Origin: Lutimonas sp.
Lineage (GTDB): Bacteria > Bacteroidota > Bacteroidia > Flavobacteriales > Flavobacteriaceae
Assembly: GCF_051011215.1 (NCBI RefSeq)
Contig: NZ_JBPCUJ010000110.1
Coordinates: 591-64,590 of the forward strand
Length of the DNA stretch: 64,000 nucleotides
Direction: 5' to 3'
The notes under the pieces were generated by a model. That model was not told the origin of the DNA, ran no database searches, and saw nothing but the letters and a program-made list of their open reading frames with translations. Each line of letters begins with the position of its first letter. Position 1 is the stretch's first letter. Position numbers and translations under genes: made by a program. Shown one piece after another: positions 26,636 to 40,425 of the stretch.

Positions 26636-27812
26636 TTTTTTAAAATATCAGGCACAGACTTCGGGTCATCCTTTACTTTTGGAAATTAAAGAAGCCAAAG
26701 GGAGTTATGTATTCGATAAAAACGATAAAAAATACCTGGATTTTATCGCTGGAGTATCCGCCAACACCCTTGGACATCAACCCAAACCTGTTGTAGATGC
26801 TGTAAAAAAACAATTGGATGCCTACATGCATGTCATGGTTTATGGAGAATTTATTCAAGAGCCTCAAGTAGCTTTAGCTAAGTTATTGGCCGAACATTTA
26901 CCTATATCGTTAAACTGCACCTACTTAACCAATTCGGGTACCGAAGCAACTGAAGGTGCCCTAAAGCTTGCAAAACGGGTGACAGGTCGATTCGAAATAA
27001 TTGCAGCAAGGAATGCCTACCACGGGAATACGCAAGGTGCAATGAGTGTATGTGGAAAGGAAGAACAAAATGCTGCCTTTCGCCCTTTGGTTCCGGGATC
27101 CTCTTTTATTGATTTCAACAATGAAGAAGATATTCATAAGATTACTAAAAACACGGCGGCAGTCATTCTGGAAACAATACAAGGCGGTGCCGGCTTTATT
27201 GTTCCCGAAAATAAGTACCTAAAAAGAGTGAAGGAACGTTGTGAAGCGGTTGGCGCCCTATTAATCCTGGATGAAATTCAATCTGGAATAGGACGTACCG
27301 GAAGTTTTTTCGCCTTCGAACAATTCGATGTTTCCCCTGATATTCTAATTACTGGTAAAGGGCTCGGTGGCGGCATGCCCATCGGGGCGTTTATTTCATC
27401 ACAAGAAATGATGATACAGCTTACGGAAAATCCAAAACTGGGTCATATCACCACCTTTGGTGGCCATCCTGTAATTGCGGCTGCAGCAGAAGCCACACTC
27501 CGCACCCTTTTTACATCAACTTTGATGGATGCTGTTCCTAAGAAAGAGGCTTTGATCAGAAGTTTACTGGTACACGATAGCATTATCGAAATAAGAGGAA
27601 AGGGATTAATGCTTGCTATACTGCTTAAAGAACCTGAACTGGCGGATTATCTTATTCTGGAAGGCCTTAAACATGGTATCTTACTATTTTGGTTATTATA
27701 TGAAGCAAAGGCTGTAAGAATTACACCGCCGCTTACCATAACTGAGGATGAAATTAAACAAGGATGTGAATTGATTCTTAGTATCCTTAACAAAAGCAAA
27801 GAAACGACTTAA
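26625..27812 (+). CDS. Class-III PLP-dependent aminotransferase (acetylornithine/GABA aminotransferase family)
   Basis: LILDEIQSGIGRTG and the PLP-lysine motif ITGKGLGGG. The ATG overlaps the upstream stop by 11 nt. Confidence 0.8.
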   Translation: MKNDFLKYQAQTSGHPLLLEIKEAKGSYVFDKNDKKYLDFIAGVSANTLGHQPKPVVDAVKKQLDAYMHVMVYGEFIQEPQVALAKLLAEHLPISLNCTYLTNSGTEATEGALKLAKRVTGRFEIIAARNAYHGNTQGAMSVCGKEEQNAAFRPLVPGSSFIDFNNEEDIHKITKNTAAVILETIQGGAGFIVPENKYLKRVKERCEAVGALLILDEIQSGIGRTGSFFAFEQFDVSPDILITGKGLGGGMPIGAFISSQEMMIQLTENPKLGHITTFGGHPVIAAAAEATLRTLFTSTLMDAVPKKEALIRSLLVHDSIIEIRGKGLMLAILLKEPELADYLILEGLKHGILLFWLLYEAKAVRITPPLTITEDEIKQGCELILSILNKSKETT

Positions 27813-27847
27813 ATGATTCCATCCACATCTCCTGCTGCATTATTAAA

Positions 27848-27864
27848 TGTGTAAACTTTACACA
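27848..27864. repeat. Perfect inverted repeat TGTGTAAA-C-TTTACACA
   Basis: Read directly from the sequence. It lies 36 nt after the aminotransferase stop and 217 nt upstream of ATG 28081. Confidence 0.5.
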
Positions 27865-27920
27865 ATAATTTGAATTATCAATAATCATAAGCATTATTCA
27901 CTGCGTATATGTTAAAATTG

Positions 27921-27978
27921 TTAAGCAATTCTTAATAAATAATTGATTTCAATCGTTAAATAGTTAAATGTTTCTTAA
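27921..27978. promoter_or_regulatory. Two dyads, TTAAG-N5-CTTAA (27921-27935) and TTAAA-N5-CTTAA (27964-27978), upstream of paralog 1
   Basis: The same pair of dyads occurs upstream of paralog 2. The regulatory role is inferred, not shown. Confidence 0.3.
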
Positions 27979-28003
27979 TTGAGGCAAATTTAACATCATC
28001 GAA

Positions 28004-28031
28004 TGTAACAAATACCCTAAATGTTCCGTCC
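28004..28031 (+). promoter_or_regulatory. ECF-sigma-like promoter TGTAACA-N16-CGTC for paralog 1
   Basis: AAC (28007-28009) and CGTC (28027-28030) are separated by 17 nt. Both motifs are conserved while the spacer varies in the paralogous copy. No TAnnTTTG box is present. Confidence 0.35.
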
Positions 28032-28045
28032 TTTAATAGTATAAA

Positions 28046-28069
28046 TGTCTAATCTATTTGTCTAATCTA
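28046..28069 (+). repeat. Direct repeat TGTCTAATCTA x2 (period 13) in the leader of paralog 1
   Basis: 28046-28056 and 28059-28069 are identical 11-mers separated by TT. The same arrangement occurs at 28651-28674. Confidence 0.6.
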
Positions 28070-28080
28070 AATTATCTATC

Positions 28081-28422
28081 ATGAAAAACTTAAAATTATT
28101 AATTCTTGCACTTGGCCTTTTTACTGTAAATATTTCAGCAGCCAATATGAACCCCATCAAACCAACTGACGAATTACGCATTGAAATTGTCGAATTGATC
28201 GGTTCTAATTATATGAATGAAATGCAGGCTGACGAACAAGGTGCAGAAGCATTGTTCACCGTGAACAATAACAAAGAAATTATTATTCTTTCAGTTGATT
28301 CTGACGATGACTTACTTGAAGGTTATTTAAAAAGAAAATTAAATTATAAGAAAGTAGATCACAGACCAAGTAAACATGGTGAAATCTATTTATTACCTGT
28401 AAAGATGGTTAAGCAATTATAA
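28081..28422 (+). CDS. Small secreted protein, unknown family (paralog 1, 113 aa)
   Basis: Signal peptide MKNLKLLILALGLFTVNISAA. 82/113 residues are identical to the 28687-29028 product by hand alignment. It has its own terminator. Confidence 0.75.
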   Translation: MKNLKLLILALGLFTVNISAANMNPIKPTDELRIEIVELIGSNYMNEMQADEQGAEALFTVNNNKEIIILSVDSDDDLLEGYLKRKLNYKKVDHRPSKHGEIYLLPVKMVKQL

Positions 28423-28446
28423 GAGCCATCTAACATTTAAAAATGT

Positions 28447-28474
28447 AAAGCTGTCTTCGGACAGCTTTTTTTTT
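28447..28474 (+). terminator. Rho-independent terminator of paralog 1
   Basis: AAAGCTGTC-TTCG-GACAGCTTT stem-loop followed by a T-run to 28474. Confidence 0.8.
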
Positions 28475-28526
28475 GATGAGCATAGCATGGTGCTCATAGC
28501 TGATTATCAACACTTTTACTACAATG

Positions 28527-28583
28527 TTAAGGGTATCTTAAGAAATCACACAACTTCAGCGTTGAACGTTAAATGTTTCTTAA
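28527..28583. promoter_or_regulatory. Two dyads, TTAAG-N5-CTTAA (28527-28541) and TTAAA-N5-CTTAA (28569-28583), upstream of paralog 2
   Basis: Counterparts of 27921-27978. The second dyad lies within an 18-nt block (GTTAAATGTTTCTTAATT) identical in both copies. Confidence 0.3.
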
Positions 28584-28608
28584 TTCATGAATTTTTAACA
28601 TTTCCATA

Positions 28609-28636
28609 TGTAACAATTATAGCATTTCTTCCGTCC
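28609..28636 (+). promoter_or_regulatory. ECF-sigma-like promoter TGTAACA-N16-CGTC for paralog 2
   Basis: AAC (28612-28614) and CGTC (28632-28635) are 17 nt apart, the same geometry as at 28004-28031. Confidence 0.35.
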
Positions 28637-28650
28637 TTTAAAAGTATAAA

Positions 28651-28674
28651 TGTCTAATCTATTTGTCTAATCTA
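28651..28674 (+). repeat. Direct repeat TGTCTAATCTA x2 in the leader of paralog 2
   Basis: 28651-28661 and 28664-28674 are identical to the copies at 28046-28069. Confidence 0.6.
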
Positions 28675-28686
28675 AATTATATAATT

Positions 28687-29028
28687 ATGAAAAATTTAAA
28701 AATCTTCGTTCTAGCCCTTGGTCTTTTTACACTTAATGTATCAGCTGCAAATCTTAACCCAATTAAACCAACAGATGAGCTTCGTGTAGAAATGGTAAAT
28801 TTAATCGGATCCAACTTTATGGAAGAGATGCTGGATGAGGAGTATGCTGCCGACGTGTTATTCACAGTGAACTCAAAAAGAGAACTAATCGTATTGTCGG
28901 TTGACTCTGACAACTCGCAGCTCGAAACCTATTTGAAAAGAAAACTAAACTATAAAAAAGTAAATCACAAGCCTGGAAAACAAGGTGAAATCTACTTATT
29001 ACCTGTTAAAATGGTAAAACAACTTTAA
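28687..29028 (+). CDS. Small secreted protein, unknown family (paralog 2, 113 aa)
   Basis: ATG 28687 gives MKNLKIFVLALGLFTLNVSAA and exactly the same length as paralog 1. The ORF-track start 28663 is a TTG inside the leader repeat. Confidence 0.75.
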   Translation: MKNLKIFVLALGLFTLNVSAANLNPIKPTDELRVEMVNLIGSNFMEEMLDEEYAADVLFTVNSKRELIVLSVDSDNSQLETYLKRKLNYKKVNHKPGKQGEIYLLPVKMVKQL

Positions 29029-29056
29029 TCCACATTAATAAGTTATTTGAAAGGAG

Positions 29057-29085
29057 AAGGTTGGCCGCAAGGTCAACCTTTTTTT
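29057..29085. terminator. Hairpin terminator shared by convergent genes (paralog 2 and tlpA-like)
   Basis: AAGGTTGGCC-GCAA-GGTCAACCTT: a 10-bp stem with one G-T pair and a GNRA-type loop, followed by T7 on the + strand. It overlaps the stop of the minus-strand gene. Confidence 0.7.
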
Positions 29086-29653
29086 ATTCAATAATTTTTT
29101 CCAATAAGTTTCTCACTTTCGAGCTATTCCAATTGGCCGCCCCTACTTTACTCGCTACAATACGACCTGTGGCATCAATTATATAGGTTGTCGGCAAGGA
29201 GTTAGAATCCATTTCAGGGGGTCTGTTACTTACTTGATAGTAGATAGGTAATTCGTATCCATGATCGGAGATAAAGCGCGCTACCTTGTCTGGTTCATCG
29301 TTGGCAACGAAAAGAAACACCACCTTATCACCATAAGCATCATATAATTTTTGAAAACTAGGCATTTCCGCAACACAGGGAGGGCACCAGGTTGCCCAAA
29401 AATTCACCACAACAATCTTATTCTCAAATTGACTAAAATCTATATAGTCTCCTGACATCTTTCTGAGCTGCCATTGATAGTTCTCCAATTTGATTTGCTC
29501 CTTTTTATCTATCTCCATGGAAAATACGCTGGTAGTAATCAAACTGACACCCTTGATCAACGTAGCTCTTACGGGCAAACCATAGGGAGAAAAAAGGAAA
29601 ATAATAAATCCAATGAATAGTATATTGGAAAGATTCTTTTTAATGAAATTCAT
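29084..29653 (-). CDS. TlpA-like thiol:disulfide oxidoreductase (membrane-anchored thioredoxin fold)
   Basis: N-terminal TM anchor (ILFIGFIIFLF) and an FWATWCPPC active site. ATG 29653 is chosen because the ORF-track start at 29686 is a TTG overlapping the upstream gene. Confidence 0.8.
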   Translation of the reverse strand: MNFIKKNLSNILFIGFIIFLFSPYGLPVRATLIKGVSLITTSVFSMEIDKKEQIKLENYQWQLRKMSGDYIDFSQFENKIVVVNFWATWCPPCVAEMPSFQKLYDAYGDKVVFLFVANDEPDKVARFISDHGYELPIYYQVSNRPPEMDSNSLPTTYIIDATGRIVASKVGAANWNSSKVRNLLEKIIE

Positions 29654-30223: not shown

Positions 30224-30907
30224 TTAACTGGCTGGGGCTAAGGAATCTTCTAAAAGAAGGATTTCATTTCTTCTGAAATCTATTACTTTATGATCCTTCA
30301 ATTTATTCATTATCAGATTCAGTGTAGGTCTTGAAGTCCCGATCAAACTGGCAATATCTTTTTGCGTATAAGGATGTTTAATTTTCATTTTACCCGTCTT
30401 TTCACAACAAAAACCATAGTCTTCACACAGTTCAGTCAAAAATTCAAGCAACCTTGTTTCCGTATCTTTAAACATCAATATCTGGAGGCGTCGTTCCAGA
30501 CGCTGTATTCTAAAACTCATAAACTTATATACCTTCAGTGTAAACTTTTGATTATCTTTCATTAGCTCATGAAGCACTGGAACAGCAATCGGGCAAATAC
30601 TGGTTTTATCCGAAAGAGAAACAGCAAATTCATTTCTTTTGTCCATTCCAAGTATGGCTTTTTCTCCAAAGACTTCACCCCGAGTCAGTATTGACTTGAC
30701 AACTTCTCTACCATCTTCGGTGTAATAACCTATTTTCACCTTTCCCTTATCGATCAAATATACCTTCCTCGCAGCGTCTTCCTCGAAATAGATGTAATCT
30801 TTATTGTTGTATAAATTATAGCTGTGATCTTTCTTATAATCCCCATATTTATGTGGACAAAGAATTTTAAATAAGTTGATGTTTTCCAGATACCAGATGC
30901 GTCCCAT
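30224..30907 (-). CDS. Crp/Fnr family transcriptional regulator
   Basis: cNMP-binding beta-roll (GEVFGEKAILG) and a C-terminal HTH (TQKDIASLIGTSRPTLNLIMNKLKD). Confidence 0.85.
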   Translation of the reverse strand: MGRIWYLENINLFKILCPHKYGDYKKDHSYNLYNNKDYIYFEEDAARKVYLIDKGKVKIGYYTEDGREVVKSILTRGEVFGEKAILGMDKRNEFAVSLSDKTSICPIAVPVLHELMKDNQKFTLKVYKFMSFRIQRLERRLQILMFKDTETRLLEFLTELCEDYGFCCEKTGKMKIKHPYTQKDIASLIGTSRPTLNLIMNKLKDHKVIDFRRNEILLLEDSLAPAS

Positions 30908-33382: not shown

Positions 33383-33526
33383 CAAAATATATAGGTGATT
33401 TTATAAGATATTCAATGAAAATAGCATCCTATTTATCAATATTTAAAGAAAGGTTGAAATTCTAATTATTCAACAAAATGTATCCCTAAATCTGACCTCA
33501 AATTACGAATTCCATAAAATAAAAAA

Positions 33527-33849
33527 AGTAAGCCAATAAGCCGGATTCTGTTATCCATCAATTGACGGACTCTCATCATTTATCTGGGCCACAAATTACT
33601 TTGCAACTCTAGCTGCTCACCCCTTGAAATCGAACGAGTAGTTCTCTCCCGATAGTATCGGATCTCCAATGTACATAGCATTGCACCGCATAGAGTTTAC
33701 CTGGTTTCACTACAGCCGAACTGTACATACTTTCTGTTGCACTTGTCCTCTCCGATTCATATCGGCGGACGGATGTTATCCGCTATGCTACTCTATGGTG
33801 TCCGGACTTTCCTCCACGTGTAAAAACGCAGCGATAAGATGGCTTACTT
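33527..33849 (-). ncRNA. rnpB: RNase P RNA, bacterial type A
   Basis: The minus strand reads AAGTAAGCC...GGAGGAAAGTCCGGAC...AAGTGCAACAGAAAG...GGTAAACTC...CCCAGATAAATGA...ACAGAATCCGGCTTATTGGCTTACT. The universally conserved P4 and J-region motifs are present, the 5' AAGTAAGCC pairs with the 3' GGCTTACT (P1), and a T-run follows. Ends are accurate to about +/-5 nt. Confidence 0.92.
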
Positions 33850-33857
33850 TATAATGG

Positions 33858-38073: not shown

Positions 38074-40425
38074 TTAACCAATTATCTTCAACTTGGCAAA
38101 TTGCAATAATAACTTCTTTGTATCGCCAGATTCAAAACGGATTTCAGCCTTTTTACTATTTCCTGCGCCTTCCACTGAAAGCACTTCTCCCTGTCCAAAT
38201 TTGGCATGCTCCACCATGTTTCCCTTCACCAGATTGTTGTCGAATAAATTCTGTGATCCTCCAAGGTTACTTACCTTCTTCAGGTTTTTGGGTGGCATCA
38301 CCTTCATAGGTTTCATCGGAGGTTTCTTTATATTCTTCTCCACTTTCCTCGAAACAGGTTTTTTAAACCGTATCTTTTGCTTTTCCGGAATGCCAAAAAT
38401 ATCCTTATTAATAAATTTATTAGAAGTCATTGGTTCTTTCTTAGGCGTGATATAATCGATGAATTTCTCGTCCACCTCTTCTAAAAACCTACTGGGTTCA
38501 CAATCTATCAGTTTGCCCCAGCGATAGCGCGATTGTGCATAAGATAAATAAACTTGTTTTTCAGCCCTGGTCAGCGCAACATAAAACAAACGTCGCTCTT
38601 CCTCTATTTCACTCCTCGTATTCATACTCATGGCGGAAGGAAATAAATTTTCTTCCAGCCCTACAATATAAACATAGGGAAACTCTAATCCTTTGGCCAG
38701 GTGAATCGTCATTAATGACACTCTTGGAACATCATCTTTCTCTTTGTCAAAATCGGTGGCAAGGGCCACATCCTCAAGAAAAAAAGCAAGAGAGGCATCT
38801 TCATCTTTTTGCTTTTGCTCTTCGATAAAATCTTTAACTCCATTCATCAGTTCCTGAACATTTTCAACTCTGGCCACTGACTCAGGTGTACCTTCTGATT
38901 CTATATCTCTGATCAATCTGGTTTTCTTTACTACCAGATCTGCCATCTCAAAGGCGTTTTTCGTTTGGGCCTCGATTTGAAAACTCCTGATCATATCCCT
39001 GAAATTGACGAGTTTGGCGCGAATTCCTGAATTAATATTGATCGTTACCATTTCCAACTGGCTCAGCAACTCAAAAATTGAAATCTTATGTTCATTGGCA
39101 GCGATTACCAATCTATCAATAGTTGTCTGTCCAATTCCTCTGGCCGGATAATTGATCACTCTTTTAAATGCCTCTTCATCACTGGGGTTGACCAGCAAAC
39201 GCAAATAAGCCAAGGTATCTTTAATTTCTTTTCGCTGATAAAAAGACAGTCCTCCATAAATTTTATACTTAATGTTCTTTTTTCTCAGTGCATCTTCAAT
39301 GGCCCTCGATTGGGCATTTGTTCTGTAGAGAACGGTAAAGCTATCATTTGGCAATTGCTTTTGCATCTGATTCTCAAAAATAGAATTGGCAACAAATCGC
39401 CCTTCGTCACCCTCTGAAAAAGTTCTCATCACTTTGATGAGTTCACCCTCATGATTGGATGTCCAGATTTCTTTATCAAGTTTGGTTTTATTCTTGTCAA
39501 TAACGCTATTCGCTGCCTGAACAATCGTACTTGAGGATCTATAATTCTGTTCAAGTTTAAAGATCTTGACATCGTCATAGTCCTTTTGAAAGTTTAAAAT
39601 ATTCTGGATATTGGCCCCTCGAAAAGCATAGATACTCTGACTGTCGTCTCCCACTACACAAATATTTTGGTATCTGTCAGCCAAAGCCCGTACGATGAGG
39701 TATTGGGAATGATTTGTATCCTGATACTCATCCACCAGAATATACCTGAACCGATCCTGATACTTCGCGAGAACTTCCGGAAATCTCGTTAGCAACTCAT
39801 TTGTTCTCAACAATAAATCGTCAAAATCCATCGCTCCAGCTTTAAAGCATCTATCTACATATTCCTTATAAATGGATCCTATCTTTGGCCTGCCGGAAAC
39901 CTTGTCGGCCTCCATGACCTCGGGATTTTGATAATAAGCTCTTACCGTGATTAAACTATTCTTAAACTGTGAGATCCTTCCCAAGACTTGTTTTGGTTTG
40001 TACTTGTCTTTTTCCAGCTGTAATTCTTTAATAATCGAGGAAATCAATCGCACCGAATCCTGGGTGTCATAAATTGTAAAGTTAGACGGATATCCCAGCT
40101 TGTCAGCCTCGCTTCTCAGAATTCGGGCAAACACACTATGAAAGGTCCCCATCCAAAGGTTTTTAGCTTCACTTGGTCCTACAACCCCGGCTATTCTGCT
40201 TTTCATTTCGCGTGCTGCCTTGTTTGTAAAAGTCAATGACAGGATATTAAATGGATCTACACCATTTTGCATCAAATGGGCTATCCTATAGGTCAACACC
40301 CTTGTTTTACCGGAGCCTGCACCTGCTATGATTATCATAGGCCCTTCTCGTTGAAGAACGGCTTCTTTTTGCGCCTCGTTTAACTCATCCAAATAACTAC
40401 TCACTACATCTAGGGTTTTGTTCAA
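38074..40425 (-). CDS. uvrD: UvrD/PcrA-type ATP-dependent DNA helicase
   Basis: Walker A AGAGSGKT, motif II VDEYQDT, and TIHLAKGLEF. The start is a TTG (40423-40425), and there is no in-frame ATG upstream before a stop. Confidence 0.9.
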   Translation of the reverse strand: MNKTLDVVSSYLDELNEAQKEAVLQREGPMIIIAGAGSGKTRVLTYRIAHLMQNGVDPFNILSLTFTNKAAREMKSRIAGVVGPSEAKNLWMGTFHSVFARILRSEADKLGYPSNFTIYDTQDSVRLISSIIKELQLEKDKYKPKQVLGRISQFKNSLITVRAYYQNPEVMEADKVSGRPKIGSIYKEYVDRCFKAGAMDFDDLLLRTNELLTRFPEVLAKYQDRFRYILVDEYQDTNHSQYLIVRALADRYQNICVVGDDSQSIYAFRGANIQNILNFQKDYDDVKIFKLEQNYRSSSTIVQAANSVIDKNKTKLDKEIWTSNHEGELIKVMRTFSEGDEGRFVANSIFENQMQKQLPNDSFTVLYRTNAQSRAIEDALRKKNIKYKIYGGLSFYQRKEIKDTLAYLRLLVNPSDEEAFKRVINYPARGIGQTTIDRLVIAANEHKISIFELLSQLEMVTININSGIRAKLVNFRDMIRSFQIEAQTKNAFEMADLVVKKTRLIRDIESEGTPESVARVENVQELMNGVKDFIEEQKQKDEDASLAFFLEDVALATDFDKEKDDVPRVSLMTIHLAKGLEFPYVYIVGLEENLFPSAMSMNTRSEIEEERRLFYVALTRAEKQVYLSYAQSRYRWGKLIDCEPSRFLEEVDEKFIDYITPKKEPMTSNKFINKDIFGIPEKQKIRFKKPVSRKVEKNIKKPPMKPMKVMPPKNLKKVSNLGGSQNLFDNNLVKGNMVEHAKFGQGEVLSVEGAGNSKKAEIRFESGDTKKLLLQFAKLKIIG

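Follow-up and report, generated by a model that had tools for sequence, protein, structure and literature searches.

Two tandem genes in a 64,000-nt stretch of the genome of Lutimonas sp. (contig NZ_JBPCUJ010000110.1, assembly GCF_051011215.1; hereafter the window, to which all coordinates refer) are preceded by nearly the same non-coding sequence, in which GTTAA-type sites, a promoter of the type used by extracytoplasmic function (ECF) sigma factors and a short leader box follow one another up to the start codon. Gene 1 (28081-28422) and gene 2 (28687-29028), both taken from the open reading frame (ORF) list and both on the forward strand like every element of the upstream cassette, encode 113-residue paralogs, each with an N-terminal Sec-type signal peptide. 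The slow change of the upstream blocks across genomes supports the view that they are under purifying selection and serve a sequence-specific function rather than being neutral DNA. Our reading of the whole arrangement, which we hold tentatively and at slightly less than even confidence, is that activator sites and an ECF promoter would drive transcription of a leader box that a trans-acting reader recognizes in the mRNA.

The starting observation was that the DNA just upstream of the two genes has hardly changed while their synonymous sites have. The two genes share 82 of 113 residues and 246 of 342 nucleotides; the same codon is used at 42 of the 82 identical-residue positions, and 19 of the 29 shared 4-fold degenerate sites differ. 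By the Nei-Gojobori method pS is 0.77, which is beyond the Jukes-Cantor limit and leaves dS saturated and undefined, and dN is 0.175. The 52-nt blocks upstream of the start codons (28024-28075 and 28629-28680) are identical at 51 positions, the sole difference being T at 28037 versus A at 28642 (Jukes-Cantor distance 0.019). A 37-mer from this block occurs exactly twice in the window, with none expected from 100 shuffles, and identity of the two copies by chance is excluded. These figures reproduce those of an earlier inspection of the window (the original prediction), which had described equal-length 342-nt tandem genes of old divergence, a single difference between their 52-nt upstream blocks and further conserved blocks beyond; of the latter, GTTAAATGTTTCTTAATT and TGTAACA proved identical in both copies, and a weaker distal GTTAAG-N5-CTTAA was present as well. 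Gene 1 groups with the first copies of other Lutimonas genomes (81-92% identity) and gene 2 with the second copies (79-83%), and the two are 73% identical to each other. This orthologous grouping indicates that the duplication is older than speciation and that the coding regions have not been homogenized.

To judge conservation more widely we assembled 33 copies from about 20 genomes by protein homology and fetched 19 genome loci, each with 1-3 tandem copies. The same blocks recurred upstream of all 33 copies. Mean pairwise identity was 0.996 for the 16-nt core GTCTAATCTAAATTAT (the second unit of the leader box plus AATTAT), 0.976 for the TGTAACA -35 element, 0.906 for GTTAAATGTTTCTTAATT and 0.83 for ATTTAAC, compared with 0.57 for the spacer between the -35 and -10 elements, 0.50 for codon position 3, 0.39 for 4-fold sites and 0.45 for far-upstream intergenic DNA. 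Thus, the argument that non-coding blocks evolving more slowly than synonymous sites imply a sequence-specific function, made at first from a single genome, is supported by conservation between species and genera. Near-perfect leader conservation is a property of a Lutimonas-centred clade and decays gradually outside it. In family members 35-39% identical in protein, what is left of the decayed leader is a core such as TAAT(C/T)TAAAT, lying around -18 to -9, and in Namhaeicola the first unit of the leader box is intact and the second carries four changes. Among five distant loci examined, four (L074, L076, L079 and L083) keep a GNAAC-spacer-(C)GTC-like motif, and the fifth, L082, has a weaker version (TGAAAC...GGTC).

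By its sequence, TGTAAC-N17-CGTC(C/T) is a classical ECF-sigma promoter signature, and the promoter as such is an ordinary one. Motif searches and the alignment placed the -35-like element TGTAACA at 28004-28010 for gene 1 and 28609-28615 for gene 2, and the -10-like element CGTCC at 28027-28031, separated from the AAC of the -35 element by exactly 17 nt, and at 28632-28636. The predicted transcription start lies some 8-9 nt past CGTC, at about 28038-28040 for gene 1 and 28643-28645 for gene 2. The CGTCC element lies within the first 8 nt of the 52-nt block, TTCCGTCC, so that the block previously taken as a leader throughout is a leader in its remainder and part of the promoter at its upstream end. 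The pattern G[TAC]AAC-spacer-CGT[CT] was found in 86 of 89 distinct upstream regions (the parser also allowed AAT in the -35 element), with a spacer of 17 nt in 78 of these, 16 nt in 4 and 15 nt in 3. Conversely, in about 600 kb of collected sequence, each match to TG[TA]AAC-N17-CGTC was followed by the leader, except one at a contig end.

These elements have the AAC in the -35 region, the CGT in the -10 region and the fixed 16-17-nt spacer of free sequence by which ECF promoters are recognized. At ECF promoters transcription begins about 6-9 nt past the -10 element and depends on a specific sigma factor, which is often autoregulated and paired with an anti-sigma factor. Reportedly, the work of Helmann defined the consensus TG(T/A/C)AAC-N16-17-CGT(C/A) for Bacillus subtilis sigma-X/W/M. 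A transcription-start map of Flavobacterium psychrophilum assigns a -10 CGT box (the SM6 motif) to ECF sigma factors (PMC9723704). No conserved Bacteroidetes primary-sigma pair (-33 TTTG / -7 TAnnTTTG, with TTTG about 19-21 nt further upstream) was found, the partial matches TATAAATG and TCTATTTG being absent from single-unit and distant copies, and a sigma-70 consensus scan gave 7 matches with 7.0 expected, which is the chance level. The window promoters share with known ECF promoters the rigid 17-nt spacer, conservation across orthologs and envelope or periplasmic products. They differ in that cognate sigma and anti-sigma genes are not linked to the locus, as judged for ECF sigma genes by a regular-expression search of the window and fetched loci, and in that an invariant transcribed box follows the promoter and conserved GTTAA sites precede it, neither of which belongs to the ECF paradigm. 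The promoter accounts for about a third of the puzzle, and the leader box and the GTTAA sites make up the rest.

The leader box of gene 1 (28040-28075), as delimited by alignment, consists of TATAAATG overlapping a first unit GTCTAATCTA (28047-28056), TTT, and a second unit GTCTAATCTA followed by AATTAT (28060-28075); that of gene 2 (28645-28680) has its first unit at 28652-28661 and its second unit plus AATTAT at 28665-28680. The consensus is (A/T)TGTCTAATCTA, present once or twice, then AATTAT, 5-7 nt and ATG, with 5 nt between box and ATG in gene 1 and 6 nt in gene 2. The box is 16-37 nt long and G-poor, and its core lies at about -21 to -6 from the AUG. Across copies TCTAATC begins at a nearly constant distance of 20-22 nt from the ATG, and the spacing between the two units varies (12, 13, 15, 16 or 20 nt). 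Adenines at -3, -11 and -12 are conserved at 92-98%. The leader is unstructured: fold z-scores of leaders were -0.02, 0.01, -0.85 and +1.63, and RNAalifold predicted no pairs on 30 diverse leaders. Allowing 3 mismatches, the box was found upstream of genes 1 and 2 and of none of the other roughly 55 genes of the window, which argues that it is not a generic initiation region. Literature searches for the motif or the protein family yielded no description of either, and none was found in Rfam.

Two other occurrences of box-like sequence were considered separately. A scan of viral contigs gave 11 matches, mostly in apparent phage coding regions and none adjoining a promoter or family gene, and we rejected the idea that the box is a phage-borne sequence. 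The 10-mer core TAATCTAAAT also recurs within longer conserved strings, GTGTAATAATCTAAATGATTTGA, at 38324 and 38899 (reverse strand) in the window and in loci L001, L012, L028 and L045. The window copies fall in an ORF for a UvrD/PcrA-like helicase (38074-40338, reverse strand), and judging from these the recurrence probably reflects coding conservation unrelated to the leader.

The cassette is not confined to the fetched genomes. A protein search returned 217 close relatives, all of about 113 residues, from Lutimonas and uncultured Flavobacteriaceae, and the cassette layout precedes about 100 gene copies in Lutimonas, related metagenome-assembled genomes (MAGs) and metagenome contigs. We scanned metagenomes with the pattern AATGTCTAATCTAAATTAT, which describes the single-unit form of the leader only, and 53 contigs were returned. 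About 40 of the matches ended 5-7 nt short of the ATG of genes whose products are homologs sharing about 35-50% identity with the window proteins, 3 preceded an unrelated secreted protein of 176-187 residues, and the rest were isolated chance matches. Many of these contigs contained a second, neighboring family gene whose recovery could not be due to the scan pattern, and this gene had an intact two-unit leader; such leaders are an independent sample and confirm the conservation. With an nhmmer profile of promoter plus leader, searched against the window and all collected loci and contigs, 100 matches were obtained at E <= 0.01. All those better than E = 1e-3 precede genes of the family or of the second, unrelated one, and the four at the bottom of the list (E 0.003-0.01) are the isolated places where the box is matched by chance. 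Carriers are marine sediment and animal-associated Flavobacteriaceae.

The second family was found with the same promoter and leader in L024, L044 and L063, and because it is unrelated to the first, the cassette is the mark of a small regulon that includes two or more families. Its members (for example L024:8226-8820) start with MKALIIGLLFIGLTSLGYAQ... and are preceded by a GTAAC-N16-CGTC promoter and an exact single-unit leader; they show a weak, sub-threshold PepSY-like/DUF6843 match. L063 comes from the same 91.7-kb contig as L025. The result defines a small, previously unannotated ECF-type regulon.

Upstream of the promoter, each gene has a proximal and a distal GTTAA-type site, repeats or palindromes that are probably binding sites of a transcription activator. 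The proximal site GTTAAATGTTTCTTAATT lies at 27963-27980 for gene 1, about 69 bp upstream of the predicted start, and is identical at 28568-28585 for gene 2. It is about 41 bp upstream of TGTAAC, as measured for gene 1 of the window and one class-B copy (see below), and the distal site is about 43 bp further up. At gene 1 the distal site is GTTAAGCAATTCTTAAT (27920-27936, about 112 bp upstream of the predicted start), an imperfect palindrome TTAAG-N5-CTTAA read from the sequence and moderately conserved in the 33-copy alignment; its counterpart at gene 2 is GTTAAGGGTATCTTAAG (28526-28542). A TTTAAC block, the inverted partner of the GTTAAA in the proximal site, is present at 27989-27994 and 28594-28599 and in upstream regions of the two-unit class. 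In distant homologs direct repeats, GTTAAA-N4-GTTAAA, are found instead, and GTTAAA direct repeats persist at most of the distant loci examined.

Outside Lutimonas the tandem pair is usually a class-B gene followed by a class-A gene (L020, L022, L025, L028, L031, L037, L038, L041, L043, L050, L051, L054, L057-L059, L064 and L066). In class B the leader has one unit, the -10 element is CGTCT and GTTAATTTAATCATAAAA lies upstream; in class A the leader has two units, the -10 element is CGTCC and the upstream sequence is GTTAAATGTTTCTTAATT...TTTAAC. From this comparison the upstream sites differ by paralog class and the leader core is common to both.

Two regulator genes lie near GTTAA sites in the collected sequence. 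A Crp/FNR-family regulator is encoded three genes away in the window (30224-30907, reverse strand) and at some syntenic loci (L001, L011 and L079); since only some of them have it, the regulator is no constant partner of the GTTAA palindromes. One distant homolog adjoins a gene for a LytTR-type response regulator (L083:3480-4214, reverse strand), and GTTAAT/GTTAAA repeats occur in the region upstream of L083:3001, at offsets 0, +10 and +31. The GTTAA sites resemble what we take to be the direct-repeat consensus of LytTR-type regulators, which may be coincidence.

We propose the following sequence of events for the cassette as a whole. The GTTAA-type sites upstream of the -35 element, whose conservation is evident, would bind a transcription activator, and the TGTAAC-N17-CGTC(C/T) motif would be read by an ECF sigma factor encoded elsewhere in the genome. 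The leader box would then be transcribed as in effect the whole 5' untranslated region (UTR), from about +2 to position -6 relative to the AUG, and would act in single-stranded form on the mRNA, where the Shine-Dalgarno-blind flavobacterial ribosome is loaded, to which it may supply the A-rich -10 to -12 region and the A at -3 as initiation determinants. A regulon-specific RNA-binding protein or small RNA would probably recognize the box and thereby gate translation or mRNA stability. The more specific claim within this scheme is that GUCUAAUCUA(AAUUAU) is a sequence-specific translational operator or enhancer, single-stranded and positioned where a Shine-Dalgarno site would sit, with a regulon-specific RNA-binding protein, a small RNA or a part of the ribosome other than the anti-Shine-Dalgarno sequence as its possible reader. 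Taken jointly, we regard this claim as possible but doubtful.

Several features led us to place the function of the box at the RNA level. It is unstructured and G-poor, with the distance from unit to ATG held constant; the surviving core of decayed leaders stays at the same place before the start codon; and the adenines at -3, -11 and -12 match flavobacterial initiation determinants. Because unit spacing varies, the leader lacks the helical phasing expected of a cooperative DNA-bound dimer. A sequence-specific trans-acting reader is argued for by the conservation of every position of the box, including G, C and U, together with the restriction of the box to one small regulon.

Bacteroidota ribosomes ignore Shine-Dalgarno sequences, and to our knowledge very little is known about how individual mRNAs of this phylum are selected or regulated at initiation. 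Our literature search found no published sequence-specific initiation element of this sort for Bacteroidota. The flavobacterial initiation determinants that have been described are A at -3, -6 and -12/-13 (Kozak-like) together with a required unstructured initiation region (Baez et al. 2019, PMC6847099). The leaders studied here agree with that initiation region in having A at -3 and -10 to -12, no Shine-Dalgarno sequence, no structure and a 5' UTR of about 25-40 nt. They differ from it in three respects: the generic region is a loose bias in composition, whereas at least 16 consecutive positions are fixed here; AUG, normally depleted there, is tolerated inside this leader; and this box is restricted to one small regulon.

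A partial precedent is offered by the Escherichia coli cspA/B/G/I paralogs, which have a conserved 5'-UTR 'cold box' and 'upstream box'. In both cases paralogous small genes keep near-identical short 5'-UTR segments while their coding sequences diverge, and one of the csp boxes, immediately upstream of where the ribosome binds, has a post-transcriptional action. The csp leaders are about 160 nt long, structured and equipped with a Shine-Dalgarno sequence, unlike the unstructured leaders of 25-40 nt in a Shine-Dalgarno-blind phylum described here, and there is no sequence similarity.

A number of observations weigh against an mRNA-level role with a trans-acting reader. The distance from the -10 element to the first unit is also fairly constrained (it is 12-16 nt, and the outlying values of 26 and 31 nt resemble a decayed extra unit), and for this reason anchoring of the box to the ATG rather than to the promoter is a modest argument only. 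In copies with one unit the box starts very close to the predicted +1, a place that would suit a repressor operator equally well. In Namhaeicola it is the ATG-proximal unit that has decayed and the distal one that is intact, which misfits a strict fixed-distance role. A search of the window and about 600 kb of loci for a further copy of the box, complementary or guide-like, found none, and predicted pairing of the leader to 16S rRNA (-10.9 kcal/mol, with E. coli 16S as proxy) was no stronger than that of shuffled leaders (-11.3 +/- 1.7 kcal/mol). No ECF sigma gene was recognized in the window or in ORFs of the fetched loci by a regular expression for region 2, a weak test. Finally, the position of the box within the mRNA depends on a transcription start that is predicted from sequence.

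The main rival is that the box is a DNA operator, in which a repressor or other DNA-binding protein sits on each GTCTAATCTA unit across the transcription start and the early transcribed region and keeps the ECF promoter silent until induction. The regulon-specific box starts at the predicted +1 or immediately past it, with 12-16 bp between it and the -10 element; the 10-12-bp unit is directly repeated; and the second unit with its flank reads as a palindrome at 10 of 12 positions, TAAT-CTAA-ATTA. The right half of that palindrome is, however, absent from the first unit, the units are spaced at 12, 13, 15, 16 or 20 bp without helical phasing, and in many copies that look functional there is just one unit. 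In distant homologs the decayed leaders hold their position relative to the ATG, and ECF promoters are usually controlled through availability of their sigma factor. On balance we consider an operator unlikely, while taking it seriously.

It is less probable still that the box involves no trans-acting factor and is an inherited, locally optimal 5' UTR, kept for very high burst expression through its initial transcribed sequence, 5'-end stability and Shine-Dalgarno-independent initiation. The unstructured, A/U-rich and G-poor leader with A at -3 and -10 to -12 suits such a role, and since all copies of the family come from one ancestral gene, descent and selection would suffice to explain the leader within that family. 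However, identity of 99.6% at 16 positions, including C and G positions without a known role in initiation (the non-A positions of the box are G, C or U of GUCUAAUC), far exceeds the flavobacterial need (PMC6847099), the cassette also precedes an unrelated gene family, and no other gene of the window resembles the box.

We also considered whether the box is the target of an RNA-guided regulator, that is, a 14-16-nt block after a G bound by dCas12f with sigma-E or by a nuclease-dead TnpB/Cas12-type repressor. RNA-guided transcription that uses dCas12f together with sigma-E has been described in Flavobacteriaceae, with a 5'-G motif, guides of 14-16 nt, targets at conserved intergenic sites, sometimes two per region, and a transcription start placed 46 bp beyond that motif (Hoffmann et al. 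2026, PMC13472631). The bacterial family, an ECF-family sigma factor and short, sometimes duplicated, G-initial conserved intergenic sequences are common to that system and ours, and each unit here is a G followed by TCTAATCTA, which would give both units the same motif-proximal seed; a G with 15 conserved nt after it is present. On the other side, starts 46 bp past G28047 and G28060 would fall at 28093 and 28106, inside the coding sequence, and the conserved bipartite -35/-10 element contrasts with native dCas12f targets, which are without promoter motifs (PMC13472631). The window and loci contain no guide-like extra copy, and no dCas12f or rpoE gene was seen nearby in a regular-expression search for ECF genes and an inspection of the ORF list by eye that included no dCas12f-specific search. 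We judge an RNA-guided target very improbable.

A structured cis-regulatory RNA (riboswitch or attenuator) or a regulatory upstream ORF (ATG TCT AAT CTA ...) is more improbable still. An Rfam scan of 27500-29500 at E <= 10 gave chance-level matches on the terminator regions and none on the leader, which together with z-scores of -0.85 to +1.6 and the absence of predicted pairs led us to reject a structured RNA. Of the functions first suggested for the blocks (promoter, operator, or bound or structured leader), a promoter is indeed predicted and the structured leader is contradicted. An upstream ORF is suggested by the ATG at the start of the first unit in most copies and by the commonest single-unit form, in which the frame ends in a TGA overlapping the main ATG. 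This ATG is changed to AAG or ACG in intact leaders of L020, L025, L043, L054, L059 and L077, the gap of 5, 6 or 7 nt between box and ATG makes the frame vary, and substitutions of the synonymous type are not seen; a conserved leader peptide was accordingly discarded.

Recent, very local gene conversion between the paralogs without functional constraint, the alternative raised by the original prediction and compatible with a short tract if the 52-nt identity of one genome is taken by itself, is the least credible explanation of all and is ruled out, because the same sequence recurs in about 20 genomes, at orthologous loci, and in dozens of metagenome contigs, even upstream of genes no more than 35-55% identical in protein, because conserved blocks alternate with diverged spacers (pairwise alignment of both window copies shows no continuous homogenized tract), and because the coding sequences cluster by orthology and are not concerted.

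These alternatives differ in what the cassette would mean. If GUCUAAUCUA is recognized in the mRNA, a post-transcriptional gate would be added to an ECF-sigma regulon in Flavobacteriaceae, and a small RNA carrying AUAAUUUAGAUUAGAC, if present, would support control by small RNA. If the box is an operator or an optimized UTR, the finding reduces to routine promoter annotation. The leader and ECF-type promoter form a compact, mutable system for finding out whether flavobacteria have sequence-specific post-transcriptional control and what its reader is.

The products are best described as stand-alone periplasmic proteins resembling the TonB C-terminal domain, a description that leans on structural modeling, and are encoded beside thiol-redox genes. 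A profile search of 1.8 billion representative proteins found at least 774 clusters (50% identity level) at E <= 1e-3, and among the 150 best matches listed nearly all members have 105-120 residues. Searches of Pfam, NCBIfam and PDB sequences with 48 diverse members gave no match, including to Pfam TonB_C. The AlphaFold2 model of gene 1, built from a 48-sequence alignment (pLDDT 86), shows a signal peptide followed by helix-strand-strand-helix-strand, a topology resembling that of TonB/TolA C-terminal domains. In a Foldseek search of the PDB, 12 of the 15 top matches were C-terminal domains of TonB, HasB, FusB or TolA; these matches are weak (E about 0.02, probability 0.85, TM about 0.4-0.47). 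The UniRef name of the Namhaeicola homolog is 'TonB C-terminal domain-containing protein'. Unlike TonB and TolA, the proteins are secreted stand-alone domains of about 90 residues without a membrane anchor or proline-rich linker. The gene 2 product matches a deposited hypothetical protein of Lutimonas sp. residue for residue in an alignment by eye. Many homologs (for example L021, L030 and L078) have a Cys pair (CPYEYNKDEC, CPFELEKGEC) in a loop that reads SNYMNEMQADEQ and is free of Cys in the window proteins, which is of note given the adjacent gene for a periplasmic thiol:disulfide oxidoreductase.

Each paralog forms a separate transcription unit, as a terminator hairpin of its own ends each gene. 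The intrinsic terminator of gene 1 (28447-28477) was identified by a terminator scan and has a 9-bp stem, a 4-nt TTCG loop and a T run. The terminator-like hairpin after gene 2 (29059-29086; GGTTGGCC-GCAA-GGTCAACC, then a T run) was read from the sequence, is not listed by the consensus scan and overlaps the 3' end of the convergent redoxin gene. Two forward-strand ORFs in this region, one of 56 residues over the conserved upstream blocks (28487-28657) and one a TTG-extended, in-frame version of gene 2 (28663-29028, starting MSNLNYIIMKNLK...), are artefacts of conserved non-coding sequence and are without homolog support.

The gene order around the paralogs is aminotransferase, family copies and, convergent with these, a TlpA-like redoxin gene, DoxX (at most loci) and aconitase in every related genome examined, and the aminotransferase/redoxin synteny also surrounds more distant homologs and the homolog of Namhaeicola litoreus. 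The locus is therefore syntenic core DNA with variable copy number and not, as had been thought, the only accessory-looking island of the window. At locus L079, a lipoprotein with an RskA_C (anti-sigma-K C-terminal) domain is encoded at the DoxX position (L079:4055-4921, reverse strand), and a gene for an additional 188-residue lipoprotein without a Pfam match precedes the family gene. In one MAG, which also has the syntenic locus (L014), the family gene occurs a second time in other surroundings (L004:1683-2024), there with a single-unit leader; the genes adjoining it we take, from their ORF translations and without a Pfam check, to be two cryptochrome/photolyase-like genes, a possible hint of a link to light or stress. 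Elsewhere in the window, the only Rfam match at the gathering threshold was bacterial RNase P class A RNA (33521-33850, reverse strand; 187 bits, E = 7e-59).

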